This document shows, in pieces, positions 19,145-52,750 of a stretch of DNA of 52,750 nucleotides. The DNA comes from a virus (lineage: Duplodnaviria > Caudoviricetes): positions 1-52,750 of the IMG/VR virus record IMGVR_UViG_3300032308_001864, one strand, 5' to 3'. The notes under the pieces are model-generated. The model saw only the letters and a list, made by a program, of their open reading frames with translations. It was not told the origin of the DNA and made no database searches. Every line of letters starts with the position of its first letter. Within the stretch, counting starts at the first letter, position 1. The translations under genes and the position numbers were made by a program.

Positions 19145-19158
19145 AAAAATAAAACTTA

Positions 19159-24024: not shown

Positions 24025-24279
24025 TTACTTTTTCCTAGACATATTAGTGGCATAATCAAAAGATACCGGATTCTTTTTAGCCAAATCGTTCAAATTCAAA
24101 GTATTTTTAGAATGGTCTTTGTTGGCTTCTTCGATCTTTTTTACCAATTTTCCTATATTAAATTTACGTATAGGTACAGGCATATGATAACATTCATAGT
24201 ATGTTATACCCCCATTACTATTAGTACATAACCACAATAATTCTTCGTGAAATCCTTTCCGATAATTATCATCTAGGCC
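24025..24279 (-). CDS. Tail assembly chaperone C-terminal extension, probably reached by frameshift
   Basis: Frame is open from the T7 run at the end of the upstream gene: GLDDNYRKGFHEELLWLCTNSNGGITYYECYHMPVPIRKF...; its only own start candidates are a TTG or an internal ATG. Confidence 0.65.
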   Translation of the reverse strand, partial: GLDDNYRKGFHEELLWLCTNSNGGITYYECYHMPVPIRKFNIGKLVKKIEEANKDHSKNTLNLNDLAKKNPVSFDYATNMSRKK

Positions 24280-32534: not shown

Positions 32535-32933
32535 ATGCCAATAAAAAGAGAAGAATATAATATACTTAGACAAGATATATATAAAAATGTTGGAATAGGT
32601 ATTGAAATACCTTTTTCAGAAGATACCGTTTTTAAAACCACATATTCTTCAAAAGATCAAATTAAAAGTAATCTCATCAATTATTTGTTATCAAATGTTG
32701 GTGAGAGACCTTTTAGTTCATTTGGCGCTAATCTACGGCAGTACATTTTTGAACAGATGGTAGATGAAGAAAGACTTTCTGAAATATTGATTGAAAAAAT
32801 ATATCTATATGTTCCTAATATAACAGTGAACAAAGTAGACGTTTCTAAAATAGAAGAAGATAATTCTTTGGCTATACAGATTTACTATTCTTATAATAAC
32901 ACTAACGATAAAATAGCAATAAAAATAGCATAA
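32535..32933 (+). CDS. Baseplate wedge subunit / sheath initiator (T4 gp25-like)
   Basis: GIEIPF...QIKSNLINYLLSNVGERP..FGANLRQYIFE; start moved to ATG 32535. Confidence 0.92.
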   Translation: MPIKREEYNILRQDIYKNVGIGIEIPFSEDTVFKTTYSSKDQIKSNLINYLLSNVGERPFSSFGANLRQYIFEQMVDEERLSEILIEKIYLYVPNITVNKVDVSKIEEDNSLAIQIYYSYNNTNDKIAIKIA

Positions 32934-34833: not shown

Positions 34834-35376
34834 ATGATTTTTAACAGCGCAGGACATAACCCAAAAGGGATTAAAGTAGACCCAGGAGCATCCGGTTTTG
34901 GTTACAATGAAGCACATTTGGCATGTATGCAGCGTGATGCTGTCAATGCTGAATTAGATAAGAAGAATGTTAAGTATATTTCAGATAAAGACGACGAAAC
35001 ACTATCTGATTATCTTAAAAGAATACAGACAGGAGAAGGGTCGGTGGTACTAGAGTATCATTTTGACGCTTTTAATGGTAAGGCAAGTGGTGCTACAGCC
35101 TTAGTTGGCAGCGACGCTGATAGATTAGACAAGATGTTTGCCAAAGAATTGGTTGATACTACCTCTACCATTTTGGGTATACCTAATAGAGGCGTAAAAA
35201 GCGAGTCTGAAAGCCATAGAGGAAGACTAGGTTTAATGCGCGAACAAGGTACAGTATCTTTAATTGAAATATGTTTTATTGACAATAAGGCAGATTTAGA
35301 TAAATGGTTTGCCAATTATGGTAAATTAGCTAAAGCCTATGCTGATATTTTGATAAAATATGAAAATTTAGTTTAA
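34834..35376 (+). CDS. N-acetylmuramoyl-L-alanine amidase (Amidase_3), catalytic domain only
   Basis: SAGHN..., DPGA...NEA, LEYHFDA, LIEICFIDN give the H-E-H zinc ligands and the catalytic E. Confidence 0.9.
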   Translation: MIFNSAGHNPKGIKVDPGASGFGYNEAHLACMQRDAVNAELDKKNVKYISDKDDETLSDYLKRIQTGEGSVVLEYHFDAFNGKASGATALVGSDADRLDKMFAKELVDTTSTILGIPNRGVKSESESHRGRLGLMREQGTVSLIEICFIDNKADLDKWFANYGKLAKAYADILIKYENLV

Positions 35377-37365: not shown

Positions 37366-37697
37366 TGGGCCAAACTGTAGACGTAAAACGTAAAATATAT
37401 GGTATAAGCACTTTTAAGAACGTAGTTGACGTAACTTTTAATCAATTAGTTCCAAAAGATGCGCCGGTAGTTGTAACAAAGCCTACTAACGTTGATGATT
37501 TTTTTAAAAGTTATGACGAACTTTTTTATGATATACCCGCAGTTGGAGACACTAATTCTCATTTAGAGTTAATAAATAGAAGCTCTGATTACATAGGAGT
37601 ATCTTTAGCTGAATTAGAAGAAGAAATAAAAACTTTAAGACAAGAAAACGTTAGTCTAAAAAATCAATTAGCTACGTTGGCTACAAATAATAAATAA
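37365..37697 (+). CDS. Hypothetical protein with C-terminal coiled coil
   Basis: TAATG-coupled on both sides; LAELEEEIKTLRQENVSLKNQL. Confidence 0.8.
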   Translation: MGQTVDVKRKIYGISTFKNVVDVTFNQLVPKDAPVVVTKPTNVDDFFKSYDELFYDIPAVGDTNSHLELINRSSDYIGVSLAELEEEIKTLRQENVSLKNQLATLATNNK

Positions 37698-40600
37698 TGG
37701 GTGTTTCGATATCAGAATTAAATTATAGTCTAGAAAAATATAATGTAATTGATACCACATTAATTACAACAAAAGATTTTATCCGAAGTTTTGGACAAGA
37801 TATTGACTATATCGAAGCGCATCTTTATACTCAGAATAATACATTAATAAAATCTGATTATAATTTTACATACTATACAGTACCGGGGACACTTCAGGGG
37901 GAAACTGAAACTACTAGTAAGCAAATAGAATTTAAAACTGAGGAATATTTAAAATATCTTGGATACTACCTTGGTTCTTATAAGGTTCAATACAATATTT
38001 TTAGAAAGAAAATTTTCAATACCAATGAGAAACTTTTCTTTGTTAAAGAAATATCTCAAGATAGAAAAGAAATTAGAATATCTACGAATGATATTTCTAA
38101 TAGTGATATTGAATCAGGGGTTTTAAATTTTATTCAAGAATACCAAAGTTCTCCTTATTTCAAGGATTTTAATTTAAATTTTGGTGACAATAATATTGTC
38201 AATGCTGTAAATATAATATTGGATAAAAATACTAATCCGTATTCTATCTTAGTAAAGTTATACAACCCATTACCTTCTGAGTTCGATTTAAAAAGTTCTC
38301 TGTGGTTTGTGGAAGAACTTTCCGACCCACACCTATTTCAAATAGACATATTCCCAGATGTCGTAGAAGAAAAGATACCTTTTTTACGAAACGCAAATTT
38401 TGATATAGATGTTGAAAAAAATTCTATAAAGCCAACTGAATATATAAATAGTCAAAATATTTTGACTAATAGCACCCTATCTGGCTATCAGAAACTACTC
38501 AATGTAACTAATACTACGGGTATAAAAATAAATACTGACTATAGTTTATATGAAAACTTTGTTCATTTTTCTTCTGCTAAACAAAGACTCTTAAACTTTT
38601 TTTACAAGCTTCAGAATATAGAAAACAATCAGAGTAGTATAAATAGTATAAAAAATATAAATAATTATACTATATCATTTAATGTAAGTTCTAGTATATA
38701 CACCTTACAAGCTAAAATAAATGATATTATAAAGAATTTTGACGGATATGAAAATTATTTATATTTTTCTTCTGGTTCCAAGTGTTGGCCAAAATCTGGT
38801 TCGTATGGTTATTATACTAACTACCCAACAACTTCCTCTATTTCAAAAACTTGGTTAGGAAGCGATGATTATAACTCTATATATTATGGGGGGCAACTTT
38901 TTACTGCGTCATACTATGATCAAAATAATCAGAATAACTTAATTAATATTGTTCCCGAGTATATAAAAGAGGATGATATTAATTTTAGTTATGTTTTATT
39001 TTGTAACATGGTCGGTCAACATTTTGACGACATATGGCTTTATATAAAATCTGTTACAGATTTGTATAAAAACACTAATAGTTTAAGTACCGGTATATCT
39101 AAAGATGTAGTTTACTACGCTTTAAAGTCTTTAGGGATGGATACTTACAATTCAAAAAGCGATGATGACATTTATAATTACCTTTTAGGAATTAATCCTA
39201 ATGGTAGTATTCTACCTTTAACTGGTTCAAATCAAACTTTAGTAAGTAGTTCTAATGAATCTATGTCTGGAGAAGACATACAAAAAGAATTATTAAAAAG
39301 ATTATGGCATAATATTTCTCATATATTTAAATCTCGGGGTACAGAAAAAGGTATAGACGCACTGATAACTACATATGGTATACCTGATTCTATTTTAAGT
39401 ACTAATGAATATGGTGGAACTGATAAAACCTCAGCTGTCATAGAATATGTATATGAAAGATTTTCATATGCCCTGGCTAATACCACGTCTTCTTTTGTTA
39501 GAATACCTTGGTTCGCATTATATCAAAATGGATTGAAAGGAGCTGGTTCAGATGTAGTGCCTGATGCCATAGAATTTAGATTTAAACCGGCTAAGAATCT
39601 GATGCCATATTCAGCTTCTCTGTTAGATTTGATGTCTCCGGGTGCAACTACTAGTTCTTTTAGTTTATATTTTCAGCCCAACACAACTAGAAGGTATCCT
39701 TATGCAGATGTAATATTTAGACTATCTGGTTCTTCAGGGTACTATACTTCATCCTTGACGTTACCAATATATTCGACTCAATCAAATGGAGAGACATATT
39801 GGTGGAACGTTCTTTTAAAAAGAAGAACTCAAAAAAATTCTACTTCTAACAATGATGCTCAATATTACGATCTATTTGTAAAAAATAAAATAGAAGGTAG
39901 GATAGGCCATCAAGCGTCAGGGAGTATTTATGTTCCTGTGAACTCGTCATCTTATAATTACTCTTGGACTAGATATACAAACTATCCGGAACTTTACTTA
40001 GGCGGCTTTAGAAATAGATTTAGTGGTTCTTTTCAAGAGTTTAGATATTGGTCGTACCCCATATCAGAGTCATCATTTAACTTTCATGTGCTCAACCCAG
40101 AGTCAATCGAATCATATTCGACATCTTCTACATATGATGATTTAGCCGCACGTTATCCATTAGGTAATAACTTATACACATATAGACATTCTAACGTATT
40201 AATTGTTTCTTCTATCGCTCCAAGTAACATTAATCCAATTTATGTCAACACTTTACTGGATGAAAAAGATATGTTCTTTGGATTTACCGGGAGTAATAAC
40301 TATGTTGCAAATGTGGAGGAATATTATACTAATACACCTAATGCCGCATACTCAACTCCTGTAACTGAAAAGATTAGAATAATAGATAATATTATAACTG
40401 GAAGTCTTTTATCTCCTTTTATAAAAATGGAGAAAAAATCGATCGATCCTCTAACAAAAGATATACATTTTGTAGACGTATCTTTCTCCCCACAAAATGA
40501 AATAAATAAAGATATTATTGCCCATTTTGGTAATAAAGCAGATTTAGATGAATTTTTAGGAGATCCTAAAAATGATTATAAAAATGAATATTCTTTATTA

Positions 40601-42937
40601 AAAAATTTAAATGTTGAATATTATAAAAAATATACTAAAAGATATAATTATAAAGATTATGTTGAATTAGTAAAATCTTTTGACAATTCTTTATTCAAGA
40701 TGATTAAAGATAATGTCCCAGCTAGATCAAATGTTCAGACTGGATTGACCATAAAACAACCAATTTTAGAAAGATCTAAAATAAAAAGAACAGAGACAAA
40801 AGCGGAGAGTATTCAATATAAAAATGATAAAATAAAAGTAGGTAAAATATCTATAGATAGTACATATAAAAGTAATTATTCTGATGGTAAAGATTTTTAT
40901 AATGGCGAATTAAAAAATTCTTTAATAGATGTAAATAACTATTTTGAAAAAAATAATTACAATCCTTATATTGTTTATATAGAAAATTTAAATGTAAATA
41001 ATTTTGAACATACCGACTATAATACATTGATAAATAATGTTTCTTTAGGTCAACTTTCTAGAATAAATAAAGTAATAAATAATTACAATACTAATATATT
41101 AGAAGACGCTTACTTACAAGATTGGTATAGAACATATCAAAGACATATCAGACCAAGATATCTTGGTTCAAAGACTTATAGTGCAACTTATAATTTTTAT
41201 ACTCAAGGTGATTACTCTTATGGTAAAACGGCTGCGATAGATAAAAATACTTTGAAGTTTGCATGGATAAAAAATATAGCTAAAAAGAATTTAAACTTCT
41301 TTGATAAGACCTCTTTAAATTTAAAATATCTTGTTGATTCAGAAAGTTCTTTATTGGAGTTATCTAAAAATAATTCAAATTTATTTGAAGTTCAAAATAT
41401 TTTTAAATCTGGTAAAACTTCTATAATATCTCTCACTGACCCGCTTTCACCTACAAATCAAACATCTTTAAATGGTAATAAGATAATATGGAGAGGGGGG
41501 TTTTCTTTTGATCCCATATTGTATAGAGAATTAAATGAAACTTTATATTTTAAATACGACACTCCAATTCAAACTTTAGTTGTTCCATTAGGGATAAAAG
41601 CGTATTCAAATAATTCATATCAATACGCATATTTGGCAAATCAAAATAACGCCACACCACCTACTTCACCCGCTTTAAATGCTTCTGGAGATGGTTATTA
41701 TTATTATATAAATAACTCAACGTCAAATACTACCAGTAAAGCTATGGCTGATAATAGTTATACAACATCTACTTGGCGATATAATAATAAATCTAGTGTA
41801 AGCATAAATCCAACAACAATAACTTTTACTACTGCTGGTGGCGCAAATCCACAAACTCTTTCTGGGAGAAACTCTAAAGTGTACGGATTTAATTTATTAA
41901 ATTTTAATGATACTACAAGCGGATTTAATACAGAACCAGATATCAATACTTATAGACCATACATAACTTCTTCAAATTATTATTATGTTGCACCTAGAAC
42001 AGGTAAATATAATATTGAAGGAAATATAAAAATGTCTTTTAGAGGACACGATGAGGGAGCTGCCGGTACAGCTGGTCTTAGAATAGTAGGCATATTCGAG
42101 TATTGTCCTAACTCGGGAAATCCGCTTGATGAAGATCAATGGGTATATATCGCAAATACAACACTTGCTCCATTAAATGGGGTAGGGCATGGCAGCCTCC
42201 CAGGTAATTTTGGCTACAATAGTGCGGAAAGTGCTATATTCTACGACAGATCGATGATCAGTGAGTTCATATTTCAATTACAATACACCGGGGTAACCCC
42301 CGTTTTATTACAGGGATCTAATGTAAGATTTAAATTATATTGGTGTGATATAAACGGAGCGTACAATAACTCAAATTACGTTTCATGGTATGTGTATCCC
42401 CAATCATATTTTCAGATAACTGACACCACTGCGACTGTAAATAAGTATATCTACGAAAGATCTTATGGTCAAGATTCACCGTTTTATACAAAAGGTACCA
42501 CTTATATATCTAATGATACTTTAATATTTAATAGCGAAACCACGCAATTTTTTAATTTATCTAAATTTAAACCATACAGTTCTACGTCGGGAAGCTATAC
42601 GGATGTTGTCGATTATATGAGTGTTCAACCAAATGATATAATAAGAATAGGACCTTTCGAATCTGCTGCATCACAGCTATATGAAGTTAAGGAAGTGTCT
42701 CTTATTGCCGGGAGTTACTATATAGTTTTAGATAGAACTATAAGTGATATAAATTATGACGATGCGCAAAACTTTGCCATTCTTAGACCCAAACCAGACG
42801 AAACTTCTATAATATTGGATTATAATAAAACCGCAGGTGAAACTACAACGGGTGTAATAATGTGTGAAGATTTATTGCCGATAATAAAAAGCGACGTAAG
42901 TAATATAATAAAACCGTTAAAAACCGATTTATTATAA
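37697..42937 (+). CDS. Large baseplate wedge protein (gp7 / P2 gpI-like core with added domains)
   Basis: 1746 aa; LINIVPEYI...MVGQHFDDIW...HIFKSRGTEKGIDALITTYG core; lectin/LamG-like LYLGG...FSGSFQEFRYW segment. Confidence 0.65.
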   Translation: MGVSISELNYSLEKYNVIDTTLITTKDFIRSFGQDIDYIEAHLYTQNNTLIKSDYNFTYYTVPGTLQGETETTSKQIEFKTEEYLKYLGYYLGSYKVQYNIFRKKIFNTNEKLFFVKEISQDRKEIRISTNDISNSDIESGVLNFIQEYQSSPYFKDFNLNFGDNNIVNAVNIILDKNTNPYSILVKLYNPLPSEFDLKSSLWFVEELSDPHLFQIDIFPDVVEEKIPFLRNANFDIDVEKNSIKPTEYINSQNILTNSTLSGYQKLLNVTNTTGIKINTDYSLYENFVHFSSAKQRLLNFFYKLQNIENNQSSINSIKNINNYTISFNVSSSIYTLQAKINDIIKNFDGYENYLYFSSGSKCWPKSGSYGYYTNYPTTSSISKTWLGSDDYNSIYYGGQLFTASYYDQNNQNNLINIVPEYIKEDDINFSYVLFCNMVGQHFDDIWLYIKSVTDLYKNTNSLSTGISKDVVYYALKSLGMDTYNSKSDDDIYNYLLGINPNGSILPLTGSNQTLVSSSNESMSGEDIQKELLKRLWHNISHIFKSRGTEKGIDALITTYGIPDSILSTNEYGGTDKTSAVIEYVYERFSYALANTTSSFVRIPWFALYQNGLKGAGSDVVPDAIEFRFKPAKNLMPYSASLLDLMSPGATTSSFSLYFQPNTTRRYPYADVIFRLSGSSGYYTSSLTLPIYSTQSNGETYWWNVLLKRRTQKNSTSNNDAQYYDLFVKNKIEGRIGHQASGSIYVPVNSSSYNYSWTRYTNYPELYLGGFRNRFSGSFQEFRYWSYPISESSFNFHVLNPESIESYSTSSTYDDLAARYPLGNNLYTYRHSNVLIVSSIAPSNINPIYVNTLLDEKDMFFGFTGSNNYVANVEEYYTNTPNAAYSTPVTEKIRIIDNIITGSLLSPFIKMEKKSIDPLTKDIHFVDVSFSPQNEINKDIIAHFGNKADLDEFLGDPKNDYKNEYSLLKNLNVEYYKKYTKRYNYKDYVELVKSFDNSLFKMIKDNVPARSNVQTGLTIKQPILERSKIKRTETKAESIQYKNDKIKVGKISIDSTYKSNYSDGKDFYNGELKNSLIDVNNYFEKNNYNPYIVYIENLNVNNFEHTDYNTLINNVSLGQLSRINKVINNYNTNILEDAYLQDWYRTYQRHIRPRYLGSKTYSATYNFYTQGDYSYGKTAAIDKNTLKFAWIKNIAKKNLNFFDKTSLNLKYLVDSESSLLELSKNNSNLFEVQNIFKSGKTSIISLTDPLSPTNQTSLNGNKIIWRGGFSFDPILYRELNETLYFKYDTPIQTLVVPLGIKAYSNNSYQYAYLANQNNATPPTSPALNASGDGYYYYINNSTSNTTSKAMADNSYTTSTWRYNNKSSVSINPTTITFTTAGGANPQTLSGRNSKVYGFNLLNFNDTTSGFNTEPDINTYRPYITSSNYYYVAPRTGKYNIEGNIKMSFRGHDEGAAGTAGLRIVGIFEYCPNSGNPLDEDQWVYIANTTLAPLNGVGHGSLPGNFGYNSAESAIFYDRSMISEFIFQLQYTGVTPVLLQGSNVRFKLYWCDINGAYNNSNYVSWYVYPQSYFQITDTTATVNKYIYERSYGQDSPFYTKGTTYISNDTLIFNSETTQFFNLSKFKPYSSTSGSYTDVVDYMSVQPNDIIRIGPFESAASQLYEVKEVSLIAGSYYIVLDRTISDINYDDAQNFAILRPKPDETSIILDYNKTAGETTTGVIMCEDLLPIIKSDVSNIIKPLKTDLL

Positions 42938-42964
42938 AAAGTTATTTGAAATCATTATATTTTT

Positions 42965-42974
42965 GATATTTATA
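42965..42974 (+). promoter_or_regulatory. Candidate late promoter motif GATATTTATA
   Basis: The same sense-strand motif also lies upstream of genes at 13869-13878, 21725-21734, 25042-25050 and 32077-32085. Confidence 0.55.
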
Positions 42975-43000
42975 TATACAAACTTTAAAAACACTATAAA

Positions 43001-43660
43001 ATGGGCTACTTAGATAACACGATTGTTTCTATTGACGCGATATTGACAAAGAAAGGTAGAGAATTACTGGCTAGAAATGACGGTTCTTTTCAAATAACTC
43101 AATTTGCCTTGGCAGATGACGAAATAGACTACACATTGTATAATGTGAATCACCCATCAGGTTCTGCTTTTTATGGAGAAGCTATTGAAAACATGCCTCT
43201 CTTGGAAGCTTTCCCCGACGAAACACAAGTAATGAAGTATAAATTAGTTACTCTCTCAAGAGGAACTAGTAAACTACCAGTAATTAATGTGGGGTACAAT
43301 TCAATTGTATTAAAACAAGGTGCATCGATTGTAATAACTCCTCAAACACTTAATTACTTGGGTGCAGTTAGTACATTTGAGCCATCTGGGTACGTAGTAA
43401 CAGTTAGTGATGCTAGATTACTTGCAACTTTTACTGGAATAGGAGTAGACACTAGTAACTTAAACGTGACTAGTTTAAATAGTTCTGCGGGTTCTCAGTT
43501 AAGTAAGACCGCAATAGGAACATCTTTTACATTAGTTGGTACTACAACTAATACACTTTTCACTAATAATGGTACCACTTTAACTACTACTATCACCGTA
43601 GTTGGTAGAGATTCTGGTGCTAGAATTACAATTCCTTTAACAATAAATAAAAATAGCTAA
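43001..43660 (+). CDS. Putative baseplate / fibre-attachment structural protein
   Basis: AILTKKGRELLA...ITQFALADDEIDY resembles the N-terminal half of tail-collar/fibre-anchor domains. Confidence 0.6.
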   Translation: MGYLDNTIVSIDAILTKKGRELLARNDGSFQITQFALADDEIDYTLYNVNHPSGSAFYGEAIENMPLLEAFPDETQVMKYKLVTLSRGTSKLPVINVGYNSIVLKQGASIVITPQTLNYLGAVSTFEPSGYVVTVSDARLLATFTGIGVDTSNLNVTSLNSSAGSQLSKTAIGTSFTLVGTTTNTLFTNNGTTLTTTITVVGRDSGARITIPLTINKNS

Positions 43661-43662
43661 AT

Positions 43663-44694
43663 ATGTCCTTTATAGCATTCGCAGAAGATGATAGTGTAAT
43701 AAGTTCAGAAACAATAACCTCGGCTTTATGGGCGGGTAACTCCTATAATTTAAGTGGTTCTTACTATACTTCTAGTGCACAAGAAACTGGTAGCAGCGGT
43801 AAATTTTATTTAAATGTTTATCAATTACCTTCCAATTTTAGTGGCTCAGAAGTACAATTTTCTGTAGCATATGGCCACATTTCAGGTAGCGGTTCCGCTT
43901 TATTTAATTCATTTGTAAACGAGAAATCGCCCACTAGAGATGTGTATGGCCAAATGAGAAATTTAGTTTATGGTGATGAAGGTTCCGTGTTTAATTTTGG
44001 TGGTTCTAACGGGGCTTCTAGAGATATCTATGTAATAAATGTAAATAGAAGTAGATTTAAAGAAAGTATAGCAACTGGAACTTGGAATTTGGAATTAAGA
44101 GTTGGTACTGGTAGCATATATTTAACTGACAATAGTAAAGATAGTTCTATAACAAGTTTTATTGGTAGTAACGAAGTATATTATATTGTTAGTGGTACTA
44201 ACGGTAATAGTTACAATAGTTCTTCCATACAAACTAATAGCGGTAGTTACGGATTGTTTTTCCCTGATATGGGGGTATTTATTCTTAATCCTAGAGCTTT
44301 AAGCTTACCATATAGTATAGGTGGGTTAAATATGTCAATTAATGAAACTCCAGCAACAAGTTACACTTCTTCTGTAAACTTAAATAATAGAACTTTGTAT
44401 ACTGCAATAGCATCTAGTTCTGTATTTTCTGCAAGAAGCCAAGAAACAATTTCATCAAGATACTTTTTTGTAAACGCTAAAAGTTCTCAACTAAATTATA
44501 CTACAAATCCATCTATTATCGATAATAACGGGAACCTGTTATATCCTACTTTAGTAGATAATCCTCAAACATATGCAACTACCATAGGATTGTATAATAA
44601 CTCAAATGAACTTTTGGCTGTAGCAAAATTAAGTAAACCTTTAATTAAAGATTTTACTAAGCAATTAACTTGCAGAGTTAAACTGGAATTCTAA
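43663..44694 (+). CDS. Putative baseplate / fibre-attachment structural protein
   Basis: C-terminal TTIGLYNNSNELLAVAKLSKPLIKD resembles the C-terminal half of tail-collar/fibre-anchor domains. Confidence 0.6.
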   Translation: MSFIAFAEDDSVISSETITSALWAGNSYNLSGSYYTSSAQETGSSGKFYLNVYQLPSNFSGSEVQFSVAYGHISGSGSALFNSFVNEKSPTRDVYGQMRNLVYGDEGSVFNFGGSNGASRDIYVINVNRSRFKESIATGTWNLELRVGTGSIYLTDNSKDSSITSFIGSNEVYYIVSGTNGNSYNSSSIQTNSGSYGLFFPDMGVFILNPRALSLPYSIGGLNMSINETPATSYTSSVNLNNRTLYTAIASSSVFSARSQETISSRYFFVNAKSSQLNYTTNPSIIDNNGNLLYPTLVDNPQTYATTIGLYNNSNELLAVAKLSKPLIKDFTKQLTCRVKLEF

Positions 44695-44711: not shown

Positions 44712-47700
44712 ATGTCCGCATTCAAAAGAATAAATAAATCTGATGTAGTTGTAAGTCCATATATAGCAAATAAAAACTGGAGTTTTAATAATACTCAGTT
44801 AGAAAATAATGGAATACTAATACACAATGGTGCAAAATGCACTGGGTCTTTTGATCCTGACAAGGACTATTTTACAAATGGTGAATATGATAGATTGATT
44901 TATGAATCTATAAATCATATCTTTTATCAAGAATTTTCTGGTTCTTATTTAGATTCTCAACAAAATTTAACATCAAATTATTATCTATCTTCTTCTATAT
45001 ATAGAGCCAGTGGGTCATATTATACAGAAGGCGTAACTGGGTTTATCTATAAAAATTTTCCCAAAAATGTTGGAGATAAAATAAAAGTTATATCTGTACC
45101 TAAAAATATTTATGGCAACTCTTTACATCCGACAACTTTTAATATATCTTCTTCTACTTATAATTTTATAGACGATGGTGACGGTAATGTGTTAGATACA
45201 TTGAATAATAGAGAATTAGTAGGTAACATTTTTTATAAAAAAGGAATTGTTGTAATAACACACCAAGCGTATCAACAAATTTTTACCTTACCGGCTTTTG
45301 CAAAAAATGATTCGGTAACATTTAAAAGAAATGATGTTCTAAAAATGATATACCCGCTCTCTAATGACGATCCTAGAGACGGTTCTTTTATAAATAATAG
45401 TTTAACTTTATCCGGGTTAGACTCAAGTTTTTTTATAAATAATGGTGACGGAACAATCACATTAAACGCAAATGAAGTCGGGGTTTATAAGACGTATTAT
45501 ACAATAGATACGCAAGTACAATCTCCATGCCCAGGAGTTTTAACTAGTAACCAAGGTTTAATAACAGCGATCATAGAACCGGGAGATTGTTCTTTTTCTC
45601 TACTTGTTGATTTTAATCCTACTACGCCTACACTAACCCCTACAAGAACTGCTACTGCTGCACCAACTTCTACTCCTACTAGTACAACTACTTCAACACC
45701 TACTAGTACACCTGGATTAACTTCAACGCCCACTGTTACACCTGGGTTAACTAAAACCCCTACTCCCACGAACACTTCTACTCCAACTAGAACTGTAACA
45801 CCCACCTTGACTTTAACTGGAACTCCTACTAGTACACCGACATTAACAGCTACTAGTACTCCAACTCCAACTCTAACTTTGACACCTGGACTGACTCAAA
45901 CTCCTACTCCTACCGTCACTTTAACAGCAACTGTGACACCTGGATTAACTTCAACACCTACTCCAACTCAAACACCAACGCTGACAGTAACTGCTGGATT
46001 ACCACAAACGCCTACTCCAACAGTATCATTAACTGCCACTCAAACAGTTACCGCTACGCAAACGTCCACATCGACGTCTACACCAACGTTAACACCTACG
46101 TCTACCCCTAACGTAACGCCAACGCCGACTTCTACACCTACTTCAACACCGACAAGCACACCAGTTATTGGTCTTATCTATATAGATACCAATGCTTCTC
46201 AAACCATGGGGGTAGCAAGCGCTAGATTTGCTAAAGCTGGCTCTCCTACTACATATACAAATTTGGTATATTATTCCGGCAAAGATTTTCCTATTGGTCC
46301 TGGAGAATCAGGATATTTTACATCCGTAAGTCAAAGTGTGGGATGGGGTAGATTAGTGTTTACACCTACTACTACTGGATGTGTAGACATGGTTATAGAT
46401 AATGGTTTTGCAAGCAATTCTCCAAGCTATTGTTTCGACCCTGTATTTGAATATAGTAGTTGGGCAGAAGGAATCTACGGTACACCCGGGGCTGGTAAAA
46501 CTCTTTCTTTATTTTTAAGTCAACCTCCTCCTCCAACACCTACAATAACTCCGACTTTAACAAATACTCCTACTGTTACTGCGACGACAACTGCTGTTGC
46601 AACGGCTACGGGTAGTTTCTTTGTACAATTTAAGAAAAATACTGACCGAGGTGGCGGCAACGTAGATGCATTAAGCTTTTTCCTAAGAGTAAATAATGGT
46701 TCTTGGCAACAGTTTCCATCTAATGGTTTTTGCGTATCTCCACCTAATCCTCAACCAACATATATATCTTCAAGTTTTTTTGCAATCACAGCTTCGGTTG
46801 GATCCACGTTAGATTTTGGAGTAACTGATTGTACTGTGCTTACAGGAGCACCTGTTAAATTCGGGGTAGGGTATACAATAAGTTCAGGTAGCGGTGATTG
46901 GAATACTTATTGTGGCACTGACCCTTTTTATAGAATCACTAACTGGACTGGCAGCAATGTGTATTTAAACGTAGACGTTTCAGGAACAAGATTTGTAACT
47001 TGTAGTTTAGTACCAACACCAACGCCATCTCCGACACTTACTAGTACCCCCACACTTACTAGTACACCAACGTTGACTCGAACCTTAACTGGCACACCGA
47101 CTGCTACTAACACTCCAACACTTACTAGTACTCCAACACTTACTAGTACCCCCACACTTACTAGCACTTCAACTCCAACGAGTACTACGACATTGACTGC
47201 CACCAATACACCGACGGTAACACCACCGCCTACGCAGACTCCAACTCTAACGGGTACACCAACGTTAACGCCAACTTTAACTCAGACATTAGCGCCTACA
47301 CAGACACCGACGTTGACTAATACTCCTACCTTGACTAGTACTCCTACCCGTACTGCTACACAAACTGTGACGGGTACTCCTACTAATACACCAACTCAGA
47401 CTACAACAATAGGATCAACTCAAACTGCGCAGCCTACACAGACACCGACGTCTACACAAACACCGACACTTACTAGTACACCTACACTTACTAGTACACC
47501 AACGTTGACTGCTACTGGCACGCCTACCCCAACAAGCACGCCTACTAATACGGCAACACCAGCGGCTACTGCAACTGCAACGCAGACTCCTACTAGTACA
47601 CCGACGTTGACAGCTACTAATACTCCAACGTTGACTGCTACTAATACTCCAACGCTTACTGGCACAGCTACACCAACGTTGACTGCTACTAGCACACCTA

Positions 47701-48359
47701 CTCTGTCATTAACGCCTACACAGACGCCAACATTGACTTCTACGACAACTAGTACTCCTACACCATCATATATCGTAGATCCAGGATTTACATGTGTGTC
47801 TATCGAGTCGTTGAACTTAATTCAGGGTGAATGTTATTACTATCCTAATACGTATGAAAGCGCCATAGCAACTTTTGCTAAATTTTATAGTCCATATGGG
47901 TCACCTCCCGTGAGACCTTTATTAGATGTCGTATTTACTATAACTTTATCAGATAGTAGTGTGGTATACAGTACTATATACGCCACAGATCCATTTCCAT
48001 CTGATGGCGCATATGCTATATGGTATAGTGCATATCCGTGTGGTGGATTCCAAGAGCCGACTGTTACAAATGCTACTGCTAAATATTTAAATAATTATAA
48101 TGTTGTGAGTTGCGGCGATGATTCTTACGGAACTTATAATTACTATTTTGCAACACAATATTTAGATTGTGAGCAAAATTCAGCACCAGGTGGATTTGTA
48201 ATTAGAACAATACTTTCACCTTCTTCTTGGATTTGTGGGGCTACTGATGATTTACAATACGAAATTACAGGAACAGCAACTGAGGGTGACTATAACGTTT
48301 CACCAAATAAAATGAACGGAGATCTATTAATTAGTTCTTGTGGTGGAACATGTGCTTAA
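44712..48359 (+). CDS. Mucin-like virion fibre/appendage protein with three Pro/Thr tracts and Cys-containing globular domains
   Basis: N-terminal structural region (DDGDGNV...[14 protein letters not shown]) resembling the upstream gene, a cadherin/Ig-like AKNDSV...PLSNDD segment, and (PTxT)n tracts; no signal peptide. Confidence 0.8.
45615..46163 (+). repeat. Pro/Thr-rich coding repeat, tract 1
   Basis: TPTLT, TPTST, TPGLT, TPTVT units with varied synonymous codons. Confidence 0.95.
47012..47766 (+). repeat. Pro/Thr-rich coding repeat, tract 3, with 18-nt tandem units
   Basis: Near-identical CCNACACTTACTAGTACN units (PTLTST) at about 47032-47170 and 47463-47500. Confidence 0.95.
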
Positions 48360-48414
48360 AAATAAAAATATTTGTAAATTTATATGTAATATTTTAAAAT
48401 TTTTAATTATAAAA

Positions 48415-48446
48415 TTTGGTTTTTAACAAAAAAAGTGTTATATTTG
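48415..48446 (+). promoter_or_regulatory. Bacteroidota primary-sigma promoter of the glycosyltransferase cluster
   Basis: TTTG (48415-48418), 20 nt spacer, TATATTTG (48439-48446); ATG 4 nt later. Confidence 0.85.
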
Positions 48447-48450
48447 CAAA

Positions 48451-49698
48451 ATGAAAAAGATTTTTATATCAATTGCGTCTTATAGAGACCCGGAACTAAT
48501 CCCCACAATCGAAGATTGTATAAAAAATGCTAAAAACCCCGAAAATCTAGTTTTTAGTATAGCTTGGCAACATTCTAAAGACGATTCTTTTGACGATTTA
48601 TCTGTCTACAAAGATGATAAAAGGTTTAAAATTATCGATATACCTTATGAAGAATCTAAAGGGGCGTGTTGGGCAAGAAATAGAGTCCAAGAAAATTATA
48701 ACGGAGAAGATTATTATCTTCAACTAGATTCACATCATAGATTTATCCCTAATTGGGATGCGGAATGCATAAAAATGATACAAAAATTAAAGAAAAAAGG
48801 TTTTAGCAAACCTCTTTTAACAGGTTATGTATCGTCTTATGATCCCTCTAATGACCCGGGATCTAGAATAATGCAGCCTTGGAGAATGGCTTTTGATAGG
48901 TATATACCGGAAGGAGCTATATTCTTTTTACCTGAACAAATTCCTGATTATGAAAAATTAAAAGAGCCCATACCAGCAAGATTTTTATCAGCACATTTTA
49001 TTTTTACTGTGGGTCAATTTGCAAAAGAAGTTCCTTATGACCCCGATTATTATTTTCATGGAGAGGAAATTTCTTTGGCTGCTAGAGCTTACACTTGGGG
49101 GTATGACCTTTTTCATCCACATAAAGTAATAGTTTGGCACGAATATACTAGACGTGGTAGAGTTAAACAATGGGACGATGATAAAGATTGGGTTAACAAA
49201 AATAATAGTGCGCATAAAAGAAATAGAACACTTTTTGGAATGGATGGAGAATGTCCTTGCACAACCGATTTTGGTATTTATGGCTTCGGTAGAGAGAGGA
49301 TGTTGTATGATTACGAGAAATACGCGGGATTACAATTTAGAACAAGACGAGTACATAAAAATACTTTAGATAAGGTAACACCTACACATGAACCTATAAC
49401 TGATCAAGAACATTATGAGGGATTAGTTTCTAGATTTAAACATTGTATAGATGTTTTTCCTGGACAAGTACCGGAAAATGATTATGATTTTTGGGTTGTA
49501 GCAGTACATTCTGAAAATGACGAAACCTTATATAGAAAAGATTTATCCGGCGAAGAAATAAAAGTGTTAGGTAGTGACCCTGACAATTATTATAAGATTT
49601 TTGTGGAATTTGATTCTATAGAAAAGCCTCATTATTGGGTTGTATGGCCGCATAGCACATCTAAAGGGTGGTGCGAAAGATTGACTAATAAAATATAA
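48451..49698 (+). CDS. GT60-like polypeptide alpha-GlcNAc transferase (Pfam GlcNAc family)
   Basis: IFISIASYRDPE, SKGACWAR, YYLQLDSHHRF...WD (DSH motif), EVPYDP...FHGEEISLAARAYTWGYDLFHP match the pattern of Dictyostelium Gnt1-type enzymes. Confidence 0.88.
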   Translation: MKKIFISIASYRDPELIPTIEDCIKNAKNPENLVFSIAWQHSKDDSFDDLSVYKDDKRFKIIDIPYEESKGACWARNRVQENYNGEDYYLQLDSHHRFIPNWDAECIKMIQKLKKKGFSKPLLTGYVSSYDPSNDPGSRIMQPWRMAFDRYIPEGAIFFLPEQIPDYEKLKEPIPARFLSAHFIFTVGQFAKEVPYDPDYYFHGEEISLAARAYTWGYDLFHPHKVIVWHEYTRRGRVKQWDDDKDWVNKNNSAHKRNRTLFGMDGECPCTTDFGIYGFGRERMLYDYEKYAGLQFRTRRVHKNTLDKVTPTHEPITDQEHYEGLVSRFKHCIDVFPGQVPENDYDFWVVAVHSENDETLYRKDLSGEEIKVLGSDPDNYYKIFVEFDSIEKPHYWVVWPHSTSKGWCERLTNKI

Positions 49699-49700
49699 GT

Positions 49701-51317
49701 ATGAAGATAAAAGTAATACAGTATTATACGTCTAATATAAGTTATGGGCAGTATTCTAAAGAGATAAATGAAAAATATTGTAGCTTACATGGCTATGATT
49801 ATTACTGCGAGACAGACGATGTTAAAATACAGAATAAAATAAAAGATAGGGCTCCTACTTGGTACAAACCTATTTTTATAAATGAGCATTTACATGATTG
49901 CGACTACGTTTTATTTATAGATGCAGATGCAGTTTTTGATGATTGGTCTAAAAAAATAGAAGAATATGTTGAAAAAAATTATGATTTTGTTGTAACTGAA
50001 GACCACGGTCCATCTGTTATGAATGCGGGTGTTATTTTAGTAAAAAATACAGATACTAGCAAGAATTTTTTAAAAAAATGGTGGGAATTAGCGGAAAATT
50101 TAAATAATCTAAAAAATGGATTATGGCATGACCAAACATGTTTTGGTCTTCTTGCAAAATATAATGATGACCATAAAAATAAAATAAAGATTGTAACAAA
50201 TAGATTTTTAAATCATAGGGAATATAATAAAGGCGCTTTAATATTTCACGCATTTGCATATGGTATGCAGCCTTACAGAACGATTGACCAAGTCTATAAA
50301 GATAAAATATTAAATTCTAATTTTTCTTTAGAAAAAAAAGAAGTAGTTAAAAAAATATATTTAGTATATCATTGTTTTTTAGTAAAAAATTGGAAAATTC
50401 TTGTTAAAGAACAAATAGAGAGAATTGTAAATTCTGGATTGTATGATAAAGCTGAAGTTTTTTATTGTACTGTAATAGATTTGCATGACAATAAAGAAGA
50501 GTTCTTAGATCTTGTAAAAGATTATACTAAAATAAAACCAACATTTTTTGAAAATAACCAATACGAGCACGAAGGAATTAAAAAAGTTTGGGAAACAGCA
50601 AATGACAATGATGGATATATTTTGTATTTTCATACAAAAGGCGTCTTTAATGATTTTATAGATAATGATAATCCTCAGAAAGATGATTTAAAAATAAAAA
50701 CGGTTAAAGATTGGCGGCACTTATTAGAGTATTATTGCATAGATAAATGGGAAGAAGCAGTTGATAAATTGCAATATCATGATATGACGGGTGTCACTAA
50801 TAATAATAATTGGTGGTGGGGGAATTTTTGGTGGGCTACTACAGACTACATAAAAACTTTAAATACCCCTTCTGATGGAGATAGATGGTACTACGAAGCC
50901 TGGGTAAACAGCAGAGGTTCAGCAACTAAATATGAATTTCATCATTGTGATTTTATATTTTATTATACCGACTACCCTGAAAAATTTTATAAAAATAAAG
51001 AGTTTTATAAAGATAGTAAAATAATACTTAGAAGCGCTTTTTACGGGACACCCCATTCTAGAATGGACGAAGGTTGGCCCCCAGTAGAGGAAGATCCAGT
51101 TTTGATAGACGCTTATGAAAAAATAGAACAAAATCTAAAAGCACACGATTATAAAAAATTTCATTTTATGACTGATAATAATCTTGTTAAAAAAGATCCT
51201 TATTGGGGCAAAAGAAAAGTTTTATATATAACGTACAGCTATGATGTAGAACCCGATATTATTTATAATTTATTTTCTATAGAAGGACAATTTATTTCTT
51301 TTGGCCATGCAGAATAA
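49701..51317 (+). CDS. Multidomain glycosyltransferase: GT34/GMA12-MNN10-like, a second putative transferase domain and a lectin-like tail
   Basis: YCSLHGYDY, TWYKP, LFIDADA (DxD), MNAGVILVKNT, HDQ; middle YFHTKG...WR...GNFWWA; C-terminal SAFYG...DPYWGKRKVLYITY. Confidence 0.78.
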   Translation: MKIKVIQYYTSNISYGQYSKEINEKYCSLHGYDYYCETDDVKIQNKIKDRAPTWYKPIFINEHLHDCDYVLFIDADAVFDDWSKKIEEYVEKNYDFVVTEDHGPSVMNAGVILVKNTDTSKNFLKKWWELAENLNNLKNGLWHDQTCFGLLAKYNDDHKNKIKIVTNRFLNHREYNKGALIFHAFAYGMQPYRTIDQVYKDKILNSNFSLEKKEVVKKIYLVYHCFLVKNWKILVKEQIERIVNSGLYDKAEVFYCTVIDLHDNKEEFLDLVKDYTKIKPTFFENNQYEHEGIKKVWETANDNDGYILYFHTKGVFNDFIDNDNPQKDDLKIKTVKDWRHLLEYYCIDKWEEAVDKLQYHDMTGVTNNNNWWWGNFWWATTDYIKTLNTPSDGDRWYYEAWVNSRGSATKYEFHHCDFIFYYTDYPEKFYKNKEFYKDSKIILRSAFYGTPHSRMDEGWPPVEEDPVLIDAYEKIEQNLKAHDYKKFHFMTDNNLVKKDPYWGKRKVLYITYSYDVEPDIIYNLFSIEGQFISFGHAE

Positions 51318-52750
51318 TGTAACAATAGTCACCGGATTATGGGATTTAGGTAGAGGTGAACTAAAAGAATGGATGCGTAGAGATTTCGAGCAATACAAGA
51401 AAAAGTTTTTTGAAATGCTTGTGTCTGATGTACCTATGTGTATATGGATACCCTCGTCTTTGGTTGACGAAGTTATGAAAATTAGGTCTGAACATAACAC
51501 AAAAATATTTATAAAAGAAGTAAAAGATTTTGAACAATGGTTTCCTTTTTTTGAAGAACATGAGAAAATAAGGACTAACCCCGACTGGTACAATATAGAA
51601 GGTTGGGTAGCTGATTCACCTCAAGCGGCATTGAAATATTACAATCCTATGATGATGTGTAAAGTTTTCATGCTTAATGATAGCGCGATAATAAATCCTT
51701 TTGAATCTAAATATTTTTATTGGGTAGATGGCGGTTTAACAAATACTGTAAGTACAAGTTATTTTACAGACGGGTCTATATTTAAAAAAATTCCTAATTA
51801 TAGTGAGAAATTCATTCATATTTCTTATCCTTATATGCCGAATAAAGAAGTCCATGGATTTCCGGCTGATAAAATGTATGAATACCTTGGGATAAAATCC
51901 GACGAGGAGATACTGATTTCAAGAGGTGGGTTTTTTGGAGGTAAAAAAGAAGATGTTCACACTTATAATAGTCTATACTATTCTGTTTTAGAAGACACTA
52001 TGCGAAAAGGTCTTACCGGAGCGGATGAATGTCTATTTACAATAGTAAAATATCAAAATAAAAATTTTATCGATTCTTTTAAAATAGAAAGTAACGGTTT
52101 AGTTTGGCCGTTTTTTGAAAAAATACATAATTCAGAATTTGATAAGAGTAGAATTGGGTTATATGTAATAACTTTTAATAGTCCGGCACAATTTGAGACA
52201 TTAATAAATTCAATGTTGTCATATGATGCAAATTTTATAAATAAAACAGAAAAATTTTTGTTAGATAACTCTACAGATTTGACAACAACACCTAAATACG
52301 TAGAATTATGTGAAAAATATAACTTTGAACATATAAAAAAAGATAATATAGGCATAGTAGGAGGGAGAGTTTTTGTCGCTGAACATTTTGATAAAAGTAA
52401 TTTAGATTATTATTTTTGGTTTGAAGACGATATGGCTTTTTATGATAAAAAATTCGGAGTTTGTAGAAATGGTTTTAATAGATACACTCCCGATTTATTT
52501 AATAAATGTATCGATATAATAAAAAAAGAAGATTTTGATTTTTTAAAATTGAATTATAGTGAATTCTTTGGCGACAATTCCACGCAATGGGCTTGGTATA
52601 ACGTACCACAAGTAGTAAGAGACAAATTCTGGCCTGAAAATAACACCTTACCTGAACATGGTTTGAGTCAAAATGCGCCTAAAACACTATTTAAAAATAT
52701 AAAATCTCACAAAGAAACCTCTTATGTTTCCGGAGAAATCTTTTTATGTA
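51307..52750 (+). CDS. HtrL/YibB-like glycosyltransferase fused to a GT-A domain (runs off the window)
   Basis: Not in the ORF track; translated by hand from ATG 51307: MQNNVTIVTGLWDLGRG...YNPMMMCKVFML...NPFESKYFYWVDGG...RGGFFGG...DECLF, then GLYVITFNSP...LDNS...NIGIVGGR...YFWFEDD; open to the window end. Confidence 0.8.
   Translation, partial: MQNNVTIVTGLWDLGRGELKEWMRRDFEQYKKKFFEMLVSDVPMCIWIPSSLVDEVMKIRSEHNTKIFIKEVKDFEQWFPFFEEHEKIRTNPDWYNIEGWVADSPQAALKYYNPMMMCKVFMLNDSAIINPFESKYFYWVDGGLTNTVSTSYFTDGSIFKKIPNYSEKFIHISYPYMPNKEVHGFPADKMYEYLGIKSDEEILISRGGFFGGKKEDVHTYNSLYYSVLEDTMRKGLTGADECLFTIVKYQNKNFIDSFKIESNGLVWPFFEKIHNSEFDKSRIGLYVITFNSPAQFETLINSMLSYDANFINKTEKFLLDNSTDLTTTPKYVELCEKYNFEHIKKDNIGIVGGRVFVAEHFDKSNLDYYFWFEDDMAFYDKKFGVCRNGFNRYTPDLFNKCIDIIKKEDFDFLKLNYSEFFGDNSTQWAWYNVPQVVRDKFWPENNTLPEHGLSQNAPKTLFKNIKSHKETSYVSGEIFLC

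Follow-up and report, generated by a model that had tools for sequence, protein, structure and literature searches.

What does a tailed phage do with three glycosyltransferase-type genes packed directly behind the gene for a long proline- and threonine-rich protein? This arrangement lies at one end of the IMG/VR virus record IMGVR_UViG_3300032308_001864, a linear stretch of 52,750 bp that was analyzed as a whole (it is the entire record, with an estimated completeness of ~29%) and is called the window here. The four genes in question, with protein lengths in amino acids (aa), are:

44712-48359, plus strand: gene for the proline/threonine (PT)-rich protein, an open reading frame (ORF) of 1215 aa
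48451-49698, plus strand: GT60-type gene, 415 aa, after a 91-bp gap
49701-51317, plus strand: GT34-like gene, 538 aa
51301-52749, plus strand: HtrL_YibB-type gene, 483 aa, with a TTG start as listed, truncated by the contig end

An earlier, sequence-only reading had taken this region for a phage-encoded system of mucin-type O-glycosylation, and the repeat-bearing protein and three tightly packed genes that it described are confirmed at these coordinates. Protein family, predicted fold, synteny and an enrichment that holds in both directions (PT tracts around the enzyme and the enzyme around PT tracts) make O-glycosylation of the phage's own PT tracts by this cassette, in the host cytoplasm, the best reading, and one in which we place somewhat better than even confidence.

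The GT60-type enzyme matched PF11397 (GlcNAc/GT60), used here as a proxy for CAZy GT60 membership, at 243.1 bits, above the curated Pfam cut-off of 21 (E = 7.8e-72; two stretches, profile positions 2-45 and 98-350 of 352), and phrog_24687 spans its full length (E = 5e-169). The protein has two parts:

aa 1 to ~326 of the 415-aa protein, plus strand: GT-A catalytic domain with D93-S94-H95
49429-49695, plus strand (aa ~327-415): beta-rich C-terminal domain, fold unplaced, no Pfam match

D93-S94-H95 and H230 are invariant in 23 homologues reaching down to 37% identity, and the AlphaFold model (predicted local distance difference test, pLDDT, 91.8) combines a GT-A fold with a conserved D-x-D/H motif. 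When this model was compared with 48,161 representative chains, mouse ppGalNAc-T1 bound to a mucin glycopeptide ranked first (Z 21.2, root-mean-square deviation 3.6 over 280 residues) and TgGalNAc-T3 second (Z 19.8), with 271-280 residues aligned to these two GalNAc transferases and all other GT-A enzymes at or below Z 17.2. Foldseek likewise filled ranks 1-22 with ppGalNAc-T chains (best E = 6.6e-10), led by the GalNAc transferases T2, T4, T1, T10, T12, TgGalNAc-T3 and PGANT9. The family, the invariant D-S-H motif and the nearest folds together bear out the GT60 call of the sequence-only reading.

The likeness to GT27, whose metazoan and apicomplexan members are these nearest solved folds, is one of fold only, since the GT2-type match (PF00535) reached 20 bits against a cut-off of 23.3 and a ricin B lectin domain is absent (aa 297-415 gave no Pfam match at E <= 1). 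The phage enzyme also differs from GT27 in sharing just 11-17% identity in structural alignments and in being cytoplasmic rather than Golgi-resident. Its beta-rich C-terminal domain, barely covered in the fold search, is kept among phage GT60 proteins and occupies the position of the GT27 lectin domain. A PDB sequence search with the whole protein found nothing better than an unrelated entry at E = 0.069. GT27 enzymes use a D-x-H motif, and by analogy the similar D-S-H of the phage enzyme may bind the metal.

A review, in the part available, places in GT60 the protist enzymes that transfer alpha-GlcNAc to polypeptides to begin mucin-type O-glycans, and describes the family as related to GT27 without its ricin-like domain (PMC8724618); the accessible text of another counts Skp1 Gnt1 and a Trypanosoma cruzi enzyme as members and places Gnt1 in the cytoplasm (PMC6939170). 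Like the Dictyostelium and T. cruzi enzymes and Skp1 Gnt1, the phage protein matches PF11397, is soluble and lacks a detectable ricin-type domain, and it is adjoined by Thr-rich, Pro-containing repeats, as found in the acceptors of protist GT60 enzymes. It is unlike them in being encoded by a tailed phage, in its extra ~90-aa beta-rich C-terminal domain and in its GT34-like and HtrL/GT2-like partners. On family and modeled fold, we propose that the GT60-type enzyme starts the glycan. Relatives of it appear in more than 7,374 metagenome protein clusters at E <= 1e-5 (8,000 candidates scored).

The candidate acceptor, the 1215-aa protein, is divided as follows:

44712-45266, plus strand: N-terminal ~185 aa, a putative attachment domain kept in the same syntenic place throughout the phage family
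45294-45590, plus strand: Ig-like/cadherin-like beta-sandwich region (aa ~195-293; AlphaFold model pLDDT 81.6)
45591-46205, plus strand: PT tract 1 (aa 294-498; 85 Thr, 20 Ser, 35 Pro)
46206-46478, plus strand: globular module 1, without family (aa 499-589)
46479-46628, plus strand: PT tract 2 (aa 590-639; 15 Thr, 3 Ser, 8 Pro)
46629-46976, plus strand: globular module 2, without family (aa 640-755)
46977-47804, plus strand: PT tract 3 (aa 756-1031; 124 Thr, 23 Ser, 44 Pro)
47805-48356, plus strand: C-terminal Cys-rich domain, without family (aa 1032-1215; 7 Cys)

With tracts defined as 30-aa windows in which P+T make up at least 50%, some 530 residues of this protein are tract (531, including 224 Thr, 46 Ser and 87 Pro), and 67 PTxT motifs occur in it (among them PTLT 26, PTST 12, PTPT 9, PTQT 6 and PTVT 5). 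The two long tracts are nearly uncharged (0 Glu, 1 Lys, with 0 Trp and 2 Tyr), and the protein shows the long P/T/S-rich repeats and the scarcity of charged and aromatic residues that define a mucin-like domain. No other ORF of the window has a comparable tract. The tract region has a G+C content of 43% against ~30% for the window, and its DNA repeats are short and imperfect; such G+C-rich islands in an A+T-rich genome fit selection on composition better than recent slippage, and compositional accident is ruled out. In a single contig of another sequencing run from the same study, an 18-bp in-frame deletion at 47136 removes one six-residue PT unit, which at a depth of 3.6 is weak evidence and hints at length polymorphism of PT tract 3.

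We regard the PT protein as a putative component of the tail module, either a fibre or a decoration protein. With tblastn, its N-terminal domain matched over aa 1-183 as far out as distant relatives, where identity is 22-35%, and D11, Y72, D154, D155 and N159 are invariant in an alignment of 31 sequences. A model of the first 293 aa gave fold matches that are generically Ig/cadherin-like and of low TM: Foldseek aligned the Ig-like region weakly (TM 0.2-0.27) to the Ig-like domain of a phi29 capsid protein, cadherin EC1-2 and PKD domains, the best BFVD match of the model was an uncharacterized phage protein (E = 5.8e-8), and Pfam placed Big_9 on the Ig-like region at E = 0.14 only. Pfam found no family in any of the four globular parts; globular modules 1 and 2 had no Pfam match at E <= 1 and no tblastn match in the 80 GT60 loci described below, and the Cys-rich C-terminus, a possible distal binding domain, had no Pfam match either. 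The family of unknown function phrog_15511 matches aa 938-1168, a match that may be driven by the repeats. As the sequence-only reading had stated for the enzymes, signal peptides are absent: hydropathy found no hydrophobic stretch, and hence no signal peptide or membrane helix, in any of the four proteins (maximum 19-aa Kyte-Doolittle mean 0.91-1.31, a rough test rather than a dedicated predictor).

PT tracts also surround GT60 genes in other viral genomes. A scan of IMG/VR with the window's GT60 protein gave 86 relatives, from which 80 loci at 51-64% identity were retained, and PT-rich ORFs (those with at least 40 residues of PT tract) were counted within 10-kb flanks. Such an ORF lay near GT60 in 64 of the 80 loci (137 ORFs), at a density of 9.9 per 100 kb compared with 1.35 per 100 kb in 80 baseplate-wedge loci. 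After clustering at 90% GT60 identity, 36 of 43 clusters had a PT ORF (34 at a 60-residue threshold, 29 at 100), as did 22 of the 27 groups formed from loci with common non-cassette genes, among which many singletons may reflect short flanks. In 33 of 78 loci, corresponding to 19 of the 43 clusters, a PT-rich gene directly precedes GT60. Since the G+C content of all GT60 loci is 28-39%, base composition gives PT tracts no advantage there.

The partners of GT60 are less uniform. Homologues of the window's HtrL domain occur in 65 of the 80 loci and of the second domain of the same protein in 64, whereas the GT34-like protein accompanies GT60 in only 8 and the structural neighbors of the window in only 4; the GT60-HtrL pair is thus a cassette common to different phages. 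With their tracts masked, 154 PT-bearing ORFs fell into 31 single-linkage families, one of which holds 92 ORFs from 52 loci. An initial view of the PT carriers as many unrelated proteins was therefore dropped, and the carriers have small modules in common. PT-rich proteins often flank the cassettes downstream as well (L006:16456-17277, L013:12214-13945, L012:16460-19573 and others), and many of these start with a small common module, recognized by eye from GPFNVYY and PYNIYVCD motifs.

These neighborhoods bear on one alternative, namely that the cassette glycosylates structural proteins of the phage away from the PT tracts (capsid, sheath or the small globular modules), as happens in mycobacteriophages and chloroviruses. 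Mycobacteriophage glycosylation does concern the viral capsid, in the portion of the paper available (PMC12363180); the best PDB match of the GT34-like domain, chlorovirus A64R, was named by its depositors as acting in glycosylation of the major capsid protein; and 7 of the 43 GT60 clusters have no PT ORF nearby. Glycosylation off the tracts would nevertheless leave unexplained both the mutual enrichment of PT tracts and GT60 and the PT gene as immediate upstream neighbor in 19 clusters, and the enzymes with the nearest solved folds have Thr/Pro-rich mucin peptides as substrates. We regard this alternative as unlikely.

Enrichment was also seen when PT tracts were sought independently of the enzyme. 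A degenerate DNA pattern coding for TPTxTxTPTxTxTPT found at least 120 stretches in IMG/VR, and the best 80 gave 72 scored records; a control pattern of nine Gly-X-Y triplets, a collagen-type fibre repeat, found 119 stretches, of which 80 were listed and again 72 records scored. Among the matches listed, PF11397 was present on 20 of 72 PT-pattern records (17 of 34 at >= 50 kb and 10 of 16 at >= 100 kb) and on 1 of 72 control records (1 of 19 at >= 50 kb). Fisher's exact test, which ignores relatedness among the records, gave p = 5e-6 for all records and 8e-4 for those of at least 50 kb. At least one PT-pattern record also belongs to the GT60 locus set. The co-occurrence of GT60 and PT-rich genes across phage genomes, which the sequence-only reading had put forward as a check, is thus clearly positive in both directions, though not strict.

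The window's own phage family offers a comparison at a fixed genomic position. A probe with the conserved upstream gene (43663-44694) retrieved 55 loci. In the ten closest relatives (67-72% identity), a PT-rich orthologue of the 1215-aa protein is present in nine, and the tenth contig stops 160 bp into the gene; GT60 follows the PT gene directly in seven, and the other three contigs stop inside or at the start of the PT gene. None of the 45 more distant loci has either a PT ORF or GT60/HtrL, and in several of them the N-terminal domain has a homologue that lacks PT tracts. Counted by cluster, 4 have GT60 and PT tracts, 20 have neither, 0 are discordant and 17 are uninformative. The five longest records of GT60-negative relatives (272.6 kb in total) contained no PF11397 match and 0 PT ORFs.

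Within this family the enzyme appears to change while its position does not. The GT60 of sister phages is only 34-41% identical to that of the window, passes PF11397 in 5 of 5 cases and stands beside the PT orthologue, whereas less related phages have GT60 proteins 60-64% identical to the window's, which implies that the enzyme was exchanged while its place beside the PT gene was kept. Sister cassettes at the same place (L165:13978-20316 and L169:14050-21029) hold a divergent GT60, a weakly GT4-like protein, GT25, GT11, an FkbM methyltransferase and a UDP-galactopyranose mutase, and are followed by small PT-rich proteins of ~230-260 aa. The predicted content of such a sister cassette suggests glycans with fucose and galactofuranose, and so a difference in glycan "serotype" between close relatives.

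Several observations weigh against glycosylation of the tracts. The co-occurrence counts ignore the common ancestry of the loci, the four positive clusters in the window's family form one clade, and tail-fibre regions are frequent insertion sites for accessory genes, which alone could yield adjacency. PT tracts are also known as plain flexible linkers. The placement of the PT protein in the virion comes from synteny and a generic Ig-like fold alone, and HtrL_YibB is a family without an established activity. In the forward scan, the seven PT-less GT60 clusters had no PT ORF inside 10 kb. Four GT60 loci without a PT ORF nearby were examined as whole records, and these exceptions speak rather for the pairing: two hold long PT ORFs 27-55 kb or more from GT60, one has a 48-aa PT linker, and one, also without HtrL, has an ORF of Ala/Ser/Thr repeats. 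The last (record G008, L232-L234) contains no PT ORFs, and its 509-aa ORF of AAST-type repeats (17818-19344, plus strand) could either serve as another acceptor or result from reading the wrong frame.

Tracts without the enzyme count against a strict link. Among the matches listed, GT60 is missing from 52 of the 72 PT-pattern records, one of them 166 kb long and rated 100% complete, and from 17 of the 34 records of at least 50 kb. Nine baseplate-wedge loci have PT ORFs; GT60 was predicted on the records of five of them and was found on 0 of 5, as was HtrL, and two of these five records stop inside PT genes and are hence uninformative. The related G016/G017 lineage truly contradicts a strict link at the level of the locus: its orthologue of the PT protein and two further proteins bear TPSVTPSISV-type repeats and have as their direct downstream neighbors a GIY-YIG endonuclease, a primase and a nuclease, with no transferase for 18 kb and with PF11397 and PF09612 absent from the 38.8-kb contig (24% complete). 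The layout is that of the GT60-positive relative L006 minus the cassette. In G016 the three repeat proteins are consecutive (L254:581-3537), and a SegE-type GIY-YIG homing endonuclease sits exactly at the cassette boundary of the other relatives. This lineage and the GT60-less PT-pattern records establish that PT tracts occur without GT60; tracts lacking that partner are either sometimes unglycosylated or served by other enzymes.

What the cassettes contain bears on two further alternatives. In 32 representative loci, 105 genes between GT60 and the HtrL-type gene were surveyed with Pfam, and the assignments included GT10 (6), GT2 (6), GT25 (4), GT2-like (4), GT34 (3) and GT7C (3), in addition to one Fringe-like enzyme and one second GT60. 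Modifying enzymes included several methyltransferase classes (among them FkbM and CmcI/rhamnosyl O-methyltransferase), two carbamoyltransferases and one pyruvyl transferase. Hydroxyproline-type (Skp1-like) glycosylation was set aside, with no 2OG-oxygenase among 25 of the 26 families listed for these 105 genes.

Such a collection could instead make or remodel a host envelope glycan (O-antigen or capsule), for example to block superinfection or to keep progeny from sticking to lysed cells, in which case the PT tracts would be flexible linkers in the same hypervariable tail-fibre region. Iyer and colleagues read the polymorphic glycosyltransferase clusters of jumbo cyanophages as altering the outer polysaccharide of the host, in the part of their article at hand (PMC7824862). 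GT25, GT2 and HtrL_YibB bear names related to lipopolysaccharide, cassette content varies between sister phages as it does in O-antigen loci, and the G016/G017 lineage keeps P/S/T-rich proteins without a cassette. An envelope-polysaccharide cluster would be recognized by a polyprenyl-phosphate transferase, a flippase or ABC transporter and a polymerase; no candidate for any of these and no membrane protein was found, although host components could substitute. Hydrophobic segments (Kyte-Doolittle mean >= 1.8 over 19 aa) were absent from the plus-strand genes within 7.5 kb downstream of GT60 in the 43 representative loci, as they were from the window's enzymes. Envelope remodeling, moreover, does not predict the two-way PT/GT60 enrichment, and it sits poorly with a conserved first enzyme from a polypeptide-modifying family, with a fold nearest the ppGalNAc transferases, and with genes on the structural strand straight after structural genes. 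We consider it improbable, to about the same degree as glycosylation off the tracts.

Glycosylation of modified DNA bases as a protection against restriction deserves mention because DNA-modifying phage glucosyltransferases are well known and are cited, in the accessible part, by the XacN1 paper (PMC5852040); in addition, the C-terminal domain of a relative's HtrL protein showed a weak, sub-threshold match to a TET-associated glycosyltransferase family (E = 0.0087). No known DNA-modifying family rose above threshold in the window or in the 105 cassette genes, the sugar methyl-, carbamoyl- and pyruvyl-transferases, fucosyltransferase families and UDP-galactopyranose mutase build oligosaccharides, and the cassette lies in the structural operon while the replication genes are on the other strand. 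We give this possibility very little credence. The predicted families of the cassettes suit the cytoplasmic making of a decorated oligosaccharide, and not polysaccharide export or the modification of DNA.

The second and third enzymes of the window, proposed to extend the glycan, have these domains:

49701-50315, plus strand: GT34-like/Nucleotid_trans GT-A domain (aa 1-205 of the 538-aa protein)
50316-51317, plus strand: DUF8361-like C-terminal domain of the second enzyme (aa 206-538)
51301-52125, plus strand: HtrL_YibB-like domain (aa 6-255 of the third protein)
52126-52750, plus strand: second domain of the third protein, weakly GT2-like, truncated at the contig end

Over aa 1-200 the second enzyme matched PF05637 (E = 2.6e-11), DUF273 (E = 5.4e-10) and PF03407 (E = 4.9e-5). 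The GT34 family PF05637 scored 44.2 bits against a cut-off of 23, its best stretch covering profile positions 131-209 of 238, and this partial coverage, together with DUF273 and Nucleotid_trans on the same region, is why the domain is labeled GT34-like. Its best PDB sequence match is A64R of chlorovirus PBCV-1 (2p6w, E = 0.003). The C-terminal domain had no Pfam match at E <= 1; ESM Atlas look-alikes (0.98 and 0.95) are viral clusters, partly with PF27674 (DUF8361), from Uroviricota and Nucleocytoviricota, and offer a lead only. The third protein, ~557 aa in full-length relatives, matched PF09612 (HtrL_YibB) at 50.2 bits against a cut-off of 24.1 (E = 3.5e-13, profile positions 2-249 of 267), and a PDB sequence search with it gave no match. 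PF00535 on its C-terminal domain stayed below threshold (E = 0.044); in an Atlas cluster of HtrL proteins, 33% of members carry PF00535. The Pfam search thus placed each of the three genes taken for glycosyltransferases above cut-off, as GT60, GT34-like and HtrL_YibB. The earlier count of about five transferase domains stands for the three with family support and not beyond them, given a third-protein C-domain that is GT2-like at E = 0.044, a second-enzyme C-domain without a Pfam match and an HtrL_YibB activity that is not established.

Taken as glycosylation of the PT tracts, the locus would be a late-operon module with which the phage makes its own mucin-like glycoprotein. The 1215-aa protein would be a modular tail or baseplate fibre, or a decoration protein, composed of an attachment domain, an Ig-like domain, three small globular modules and nearly uncharged Pro/Thr spacers. 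In the host cytoplasm, the soluble GT60-type enzyme would place a first sugar, probably an N-acetylhexosamine drawn from a host UDP-sugar donor, on Thr (and Ser) of the spacers, and the GT34-like and HtrL/GT2-like enzymes would then extend it with further residues. We infer this acceptor, this sugar, this order of action, the incorporation into virions and the benefit to the phage from the protein families and their arrangement. The resulting spacer would be extended, dense in O-glycans and resistant to proteases, and its glycan may vary between related phages. Cellulases of bacteria and fungi offer a parallel, with O-glycosylated PT-box linkers between modules that glycosylation extends and protects from proteases. 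In contrast to the proteins proposed here, cellulases are exported proteins, to which cellular enzymes attach the glycans either in the secretory pathway or outside the cytoplasm.

Virus-encoded glycosylation of virions is established for chloroviruses, mimiviruses and a few mycobacteriophages and is treated as a rarity among tailed phages; to our knowledge, the mycobacteriophage virion glycosyltransferases are not GT60 enzymes. Like the cassette proposed here, the glycosyltransferases of mycobacteriophages Che8, Corndog and Myrna modify the phage's own structural proteins, in a different host group and phage type and with capsid proteins rather than long PT spacers as targets (Freeman et al. 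2023, as described in PMC12363180). Giant viruses (A64R and Vp54 of PBCV-1, the fibrils of Mimivirus) resemble the window in having soluble, virus-encoded glycosyltransferases that work without an endoplasmic reticulum (ER) or Golgi, and the DUF8361-like domain is common to phages and Nucleocytoviricota. They differ in their eukaryotic hosts, and no PT-mucin acceptor has been described there; the glycans of PBCV-1 are atypical N-linked ones. A GT25-GT60 fusion was reported in the giant algal virus PkV RF01, and GT60 is among the CAZy genes listed in a sponge virome preprint, each in the part of the source that was available.

Among deposited phages, a GT60 homologue was found in only 4 of 50,697 records (the Xanthomonas and Stenotrophomonas jumbo phages XacN1, Xoo-sp13, CM1 and RAS14), at 42-44% identity and full length, with XacN1 ORF334 42.5% identical to the window's enzyme. 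As in the window, the GT60 cassette lies near a baseplate-adjacent protein with PT tracts; unlike the window, these jumbo phages have PT tracts of ~42-49 aa, much larger genomes and a G+C content of 40-50%. In XacN1 and Xoo-sp13 a carbamoyltransferase follows GT60, and the cassette lies ~9 kb from a 3313-aa protein adjoining baseplate wedge genes. In XacN1 this protein (ORF325, L220:8371-18312) carries PT tracts at aa 3078-3126 and 3130-3171, near the C-terminus and each bracketed by Cys; Xoo-sp13 has a similar tract. The available part of the XacN1 paper names ORF334 and ORF328 as the two glycosyltransferases of the phage, reports at least two virion glycoproteins and suggests that phage glycosyltransferases make them (PMC5852040), which offers an indirect precedent for virion glycosylation by the window phage.

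A literature search that covered titles and the starts of abstracts, with few subscription journals, found no GT60-plus-PT or mucin pathway described in a tailed phage. The claim that nothing like it had been described holds to that extent; GT60 already stood in viral CAZy lists, and the XacN1 authors had proposed the phage's glycosyltransferases as the makers of its virion glycoproteins. New here are the proposed GT60 initiator, the mucin-like candidate acceptor and the breadth that the system seems to have in uncultured phages, virus-encoded virion glycosylation itself being already known.

The rest of the window agrees with the assignment of this region to a virion module, which the sequence-only reading had made and which its genomic context supports: baseplate wedge, lysozyme and T4 baseplate genes are present, and the N-terminus of the PT protein is syntenic across the family. 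The relevant genes are:

24269-25021: T4 baseplate protein gene
32933-34822, plus strand: baseplate wedge gene of the structural operon
34834-35376, plus strand: lysozyme gene of the structural operon
37697-44694, plus strand: conserved upstream structural genes (1746 aa, 219 aa, 343 aa), outside the cassette, used as synteny markers in the family comparison

The plus strand thus carries a structural operon with the wedge protein and lysozyme, and the minus strand a family-B DNA polymerase, ribonucleotide reductase, DnaB-type helicase, UvsX-like recombinase, gp32-like protein and chaperonin. Among deposited phages, the closest polymerase, from Microcystis phage Mel-JY01, shares 34.5% identity with this one and is followed by those of T4-like cyanophages, from which we conclude that the window phage is, by sequence, a distant T4-like myovirus. 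A megablast of the region against deposited phages gave zero matches.

Among the other genes, the 1746-aa protein (37697-42937, plus strand) is Asn/Ser-rich, has no Pfam or PHROG family, is 25-56% identical across the phage family just upstream of the PT gene and probably serves as a large component of the baseplate or a fibre. A C39-like peptidase domain (PF13529, E = 5.3e-11) occupies aa 364-488 of the product of the structural operon's first large gene (29164-30714, plus strand). A Cpn60/GroEL-type chaperonin gene (2-1105, minus strand; PF00118, E = 5.8e-36) is truncated at the contig start; phage-encoded chaperonins are likewise commented on in the accessible part of the XacN1 paper (PMC5852040). 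Promoter and terminator scans were at chance (45 versus 43.2 expected and 8 versus 5.0 expected). In contigs from four DNA runs of one study, the region was identical in one run, possibly the one it came from, and present as fragmented, near-identical pieces in three. Contig "joints" inside PT tracts were many, had short sides and are most likely repeat artefacts.

Beyond this phage, it is tempting to suppose that a full pathway of mucin-type O-glycosylation, working in the cytoplasm on the phages' own fibres, is found in many uncultured tailed phages that are abundant and low in G+C, with GT60 priming hundreds of Thr per chain and fast-evolving soluble transferases, together with methyl-, carbamoyl- and pyruvyl-transferases, building lineage-specific glycans. 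This broad statement is tentative, and we give it rather less than an even chance. If it is true, related virions would differ in the glycan "serotype" on their bottle-brush spacers, and GT60, a sister of GT27 and regarded as a eukaryotic family, would have a very large, unnoticed phage reservoir, which bears on the origin of mucin-type glycosylation and raises the question of GT60/GT27 gene flow between phages and eukaryotes. The cultured phages with a GT60 homologue make glycosylation of the tracts directly testable, and the cassettes put on offer a system for producing mucin-like glycoproteins in the bacterial cytoplasm. The initiator family starts mucin-type O-glycans in protists and is genomically tied to Pro/Thr tracts in several phage groups. 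If those tracts are glycosylated, a large share of environmental phages would wear a self-made glycan coat, different between close relatives and with possible effects on adsorption, stability, aggregation, grazing and host recognition.

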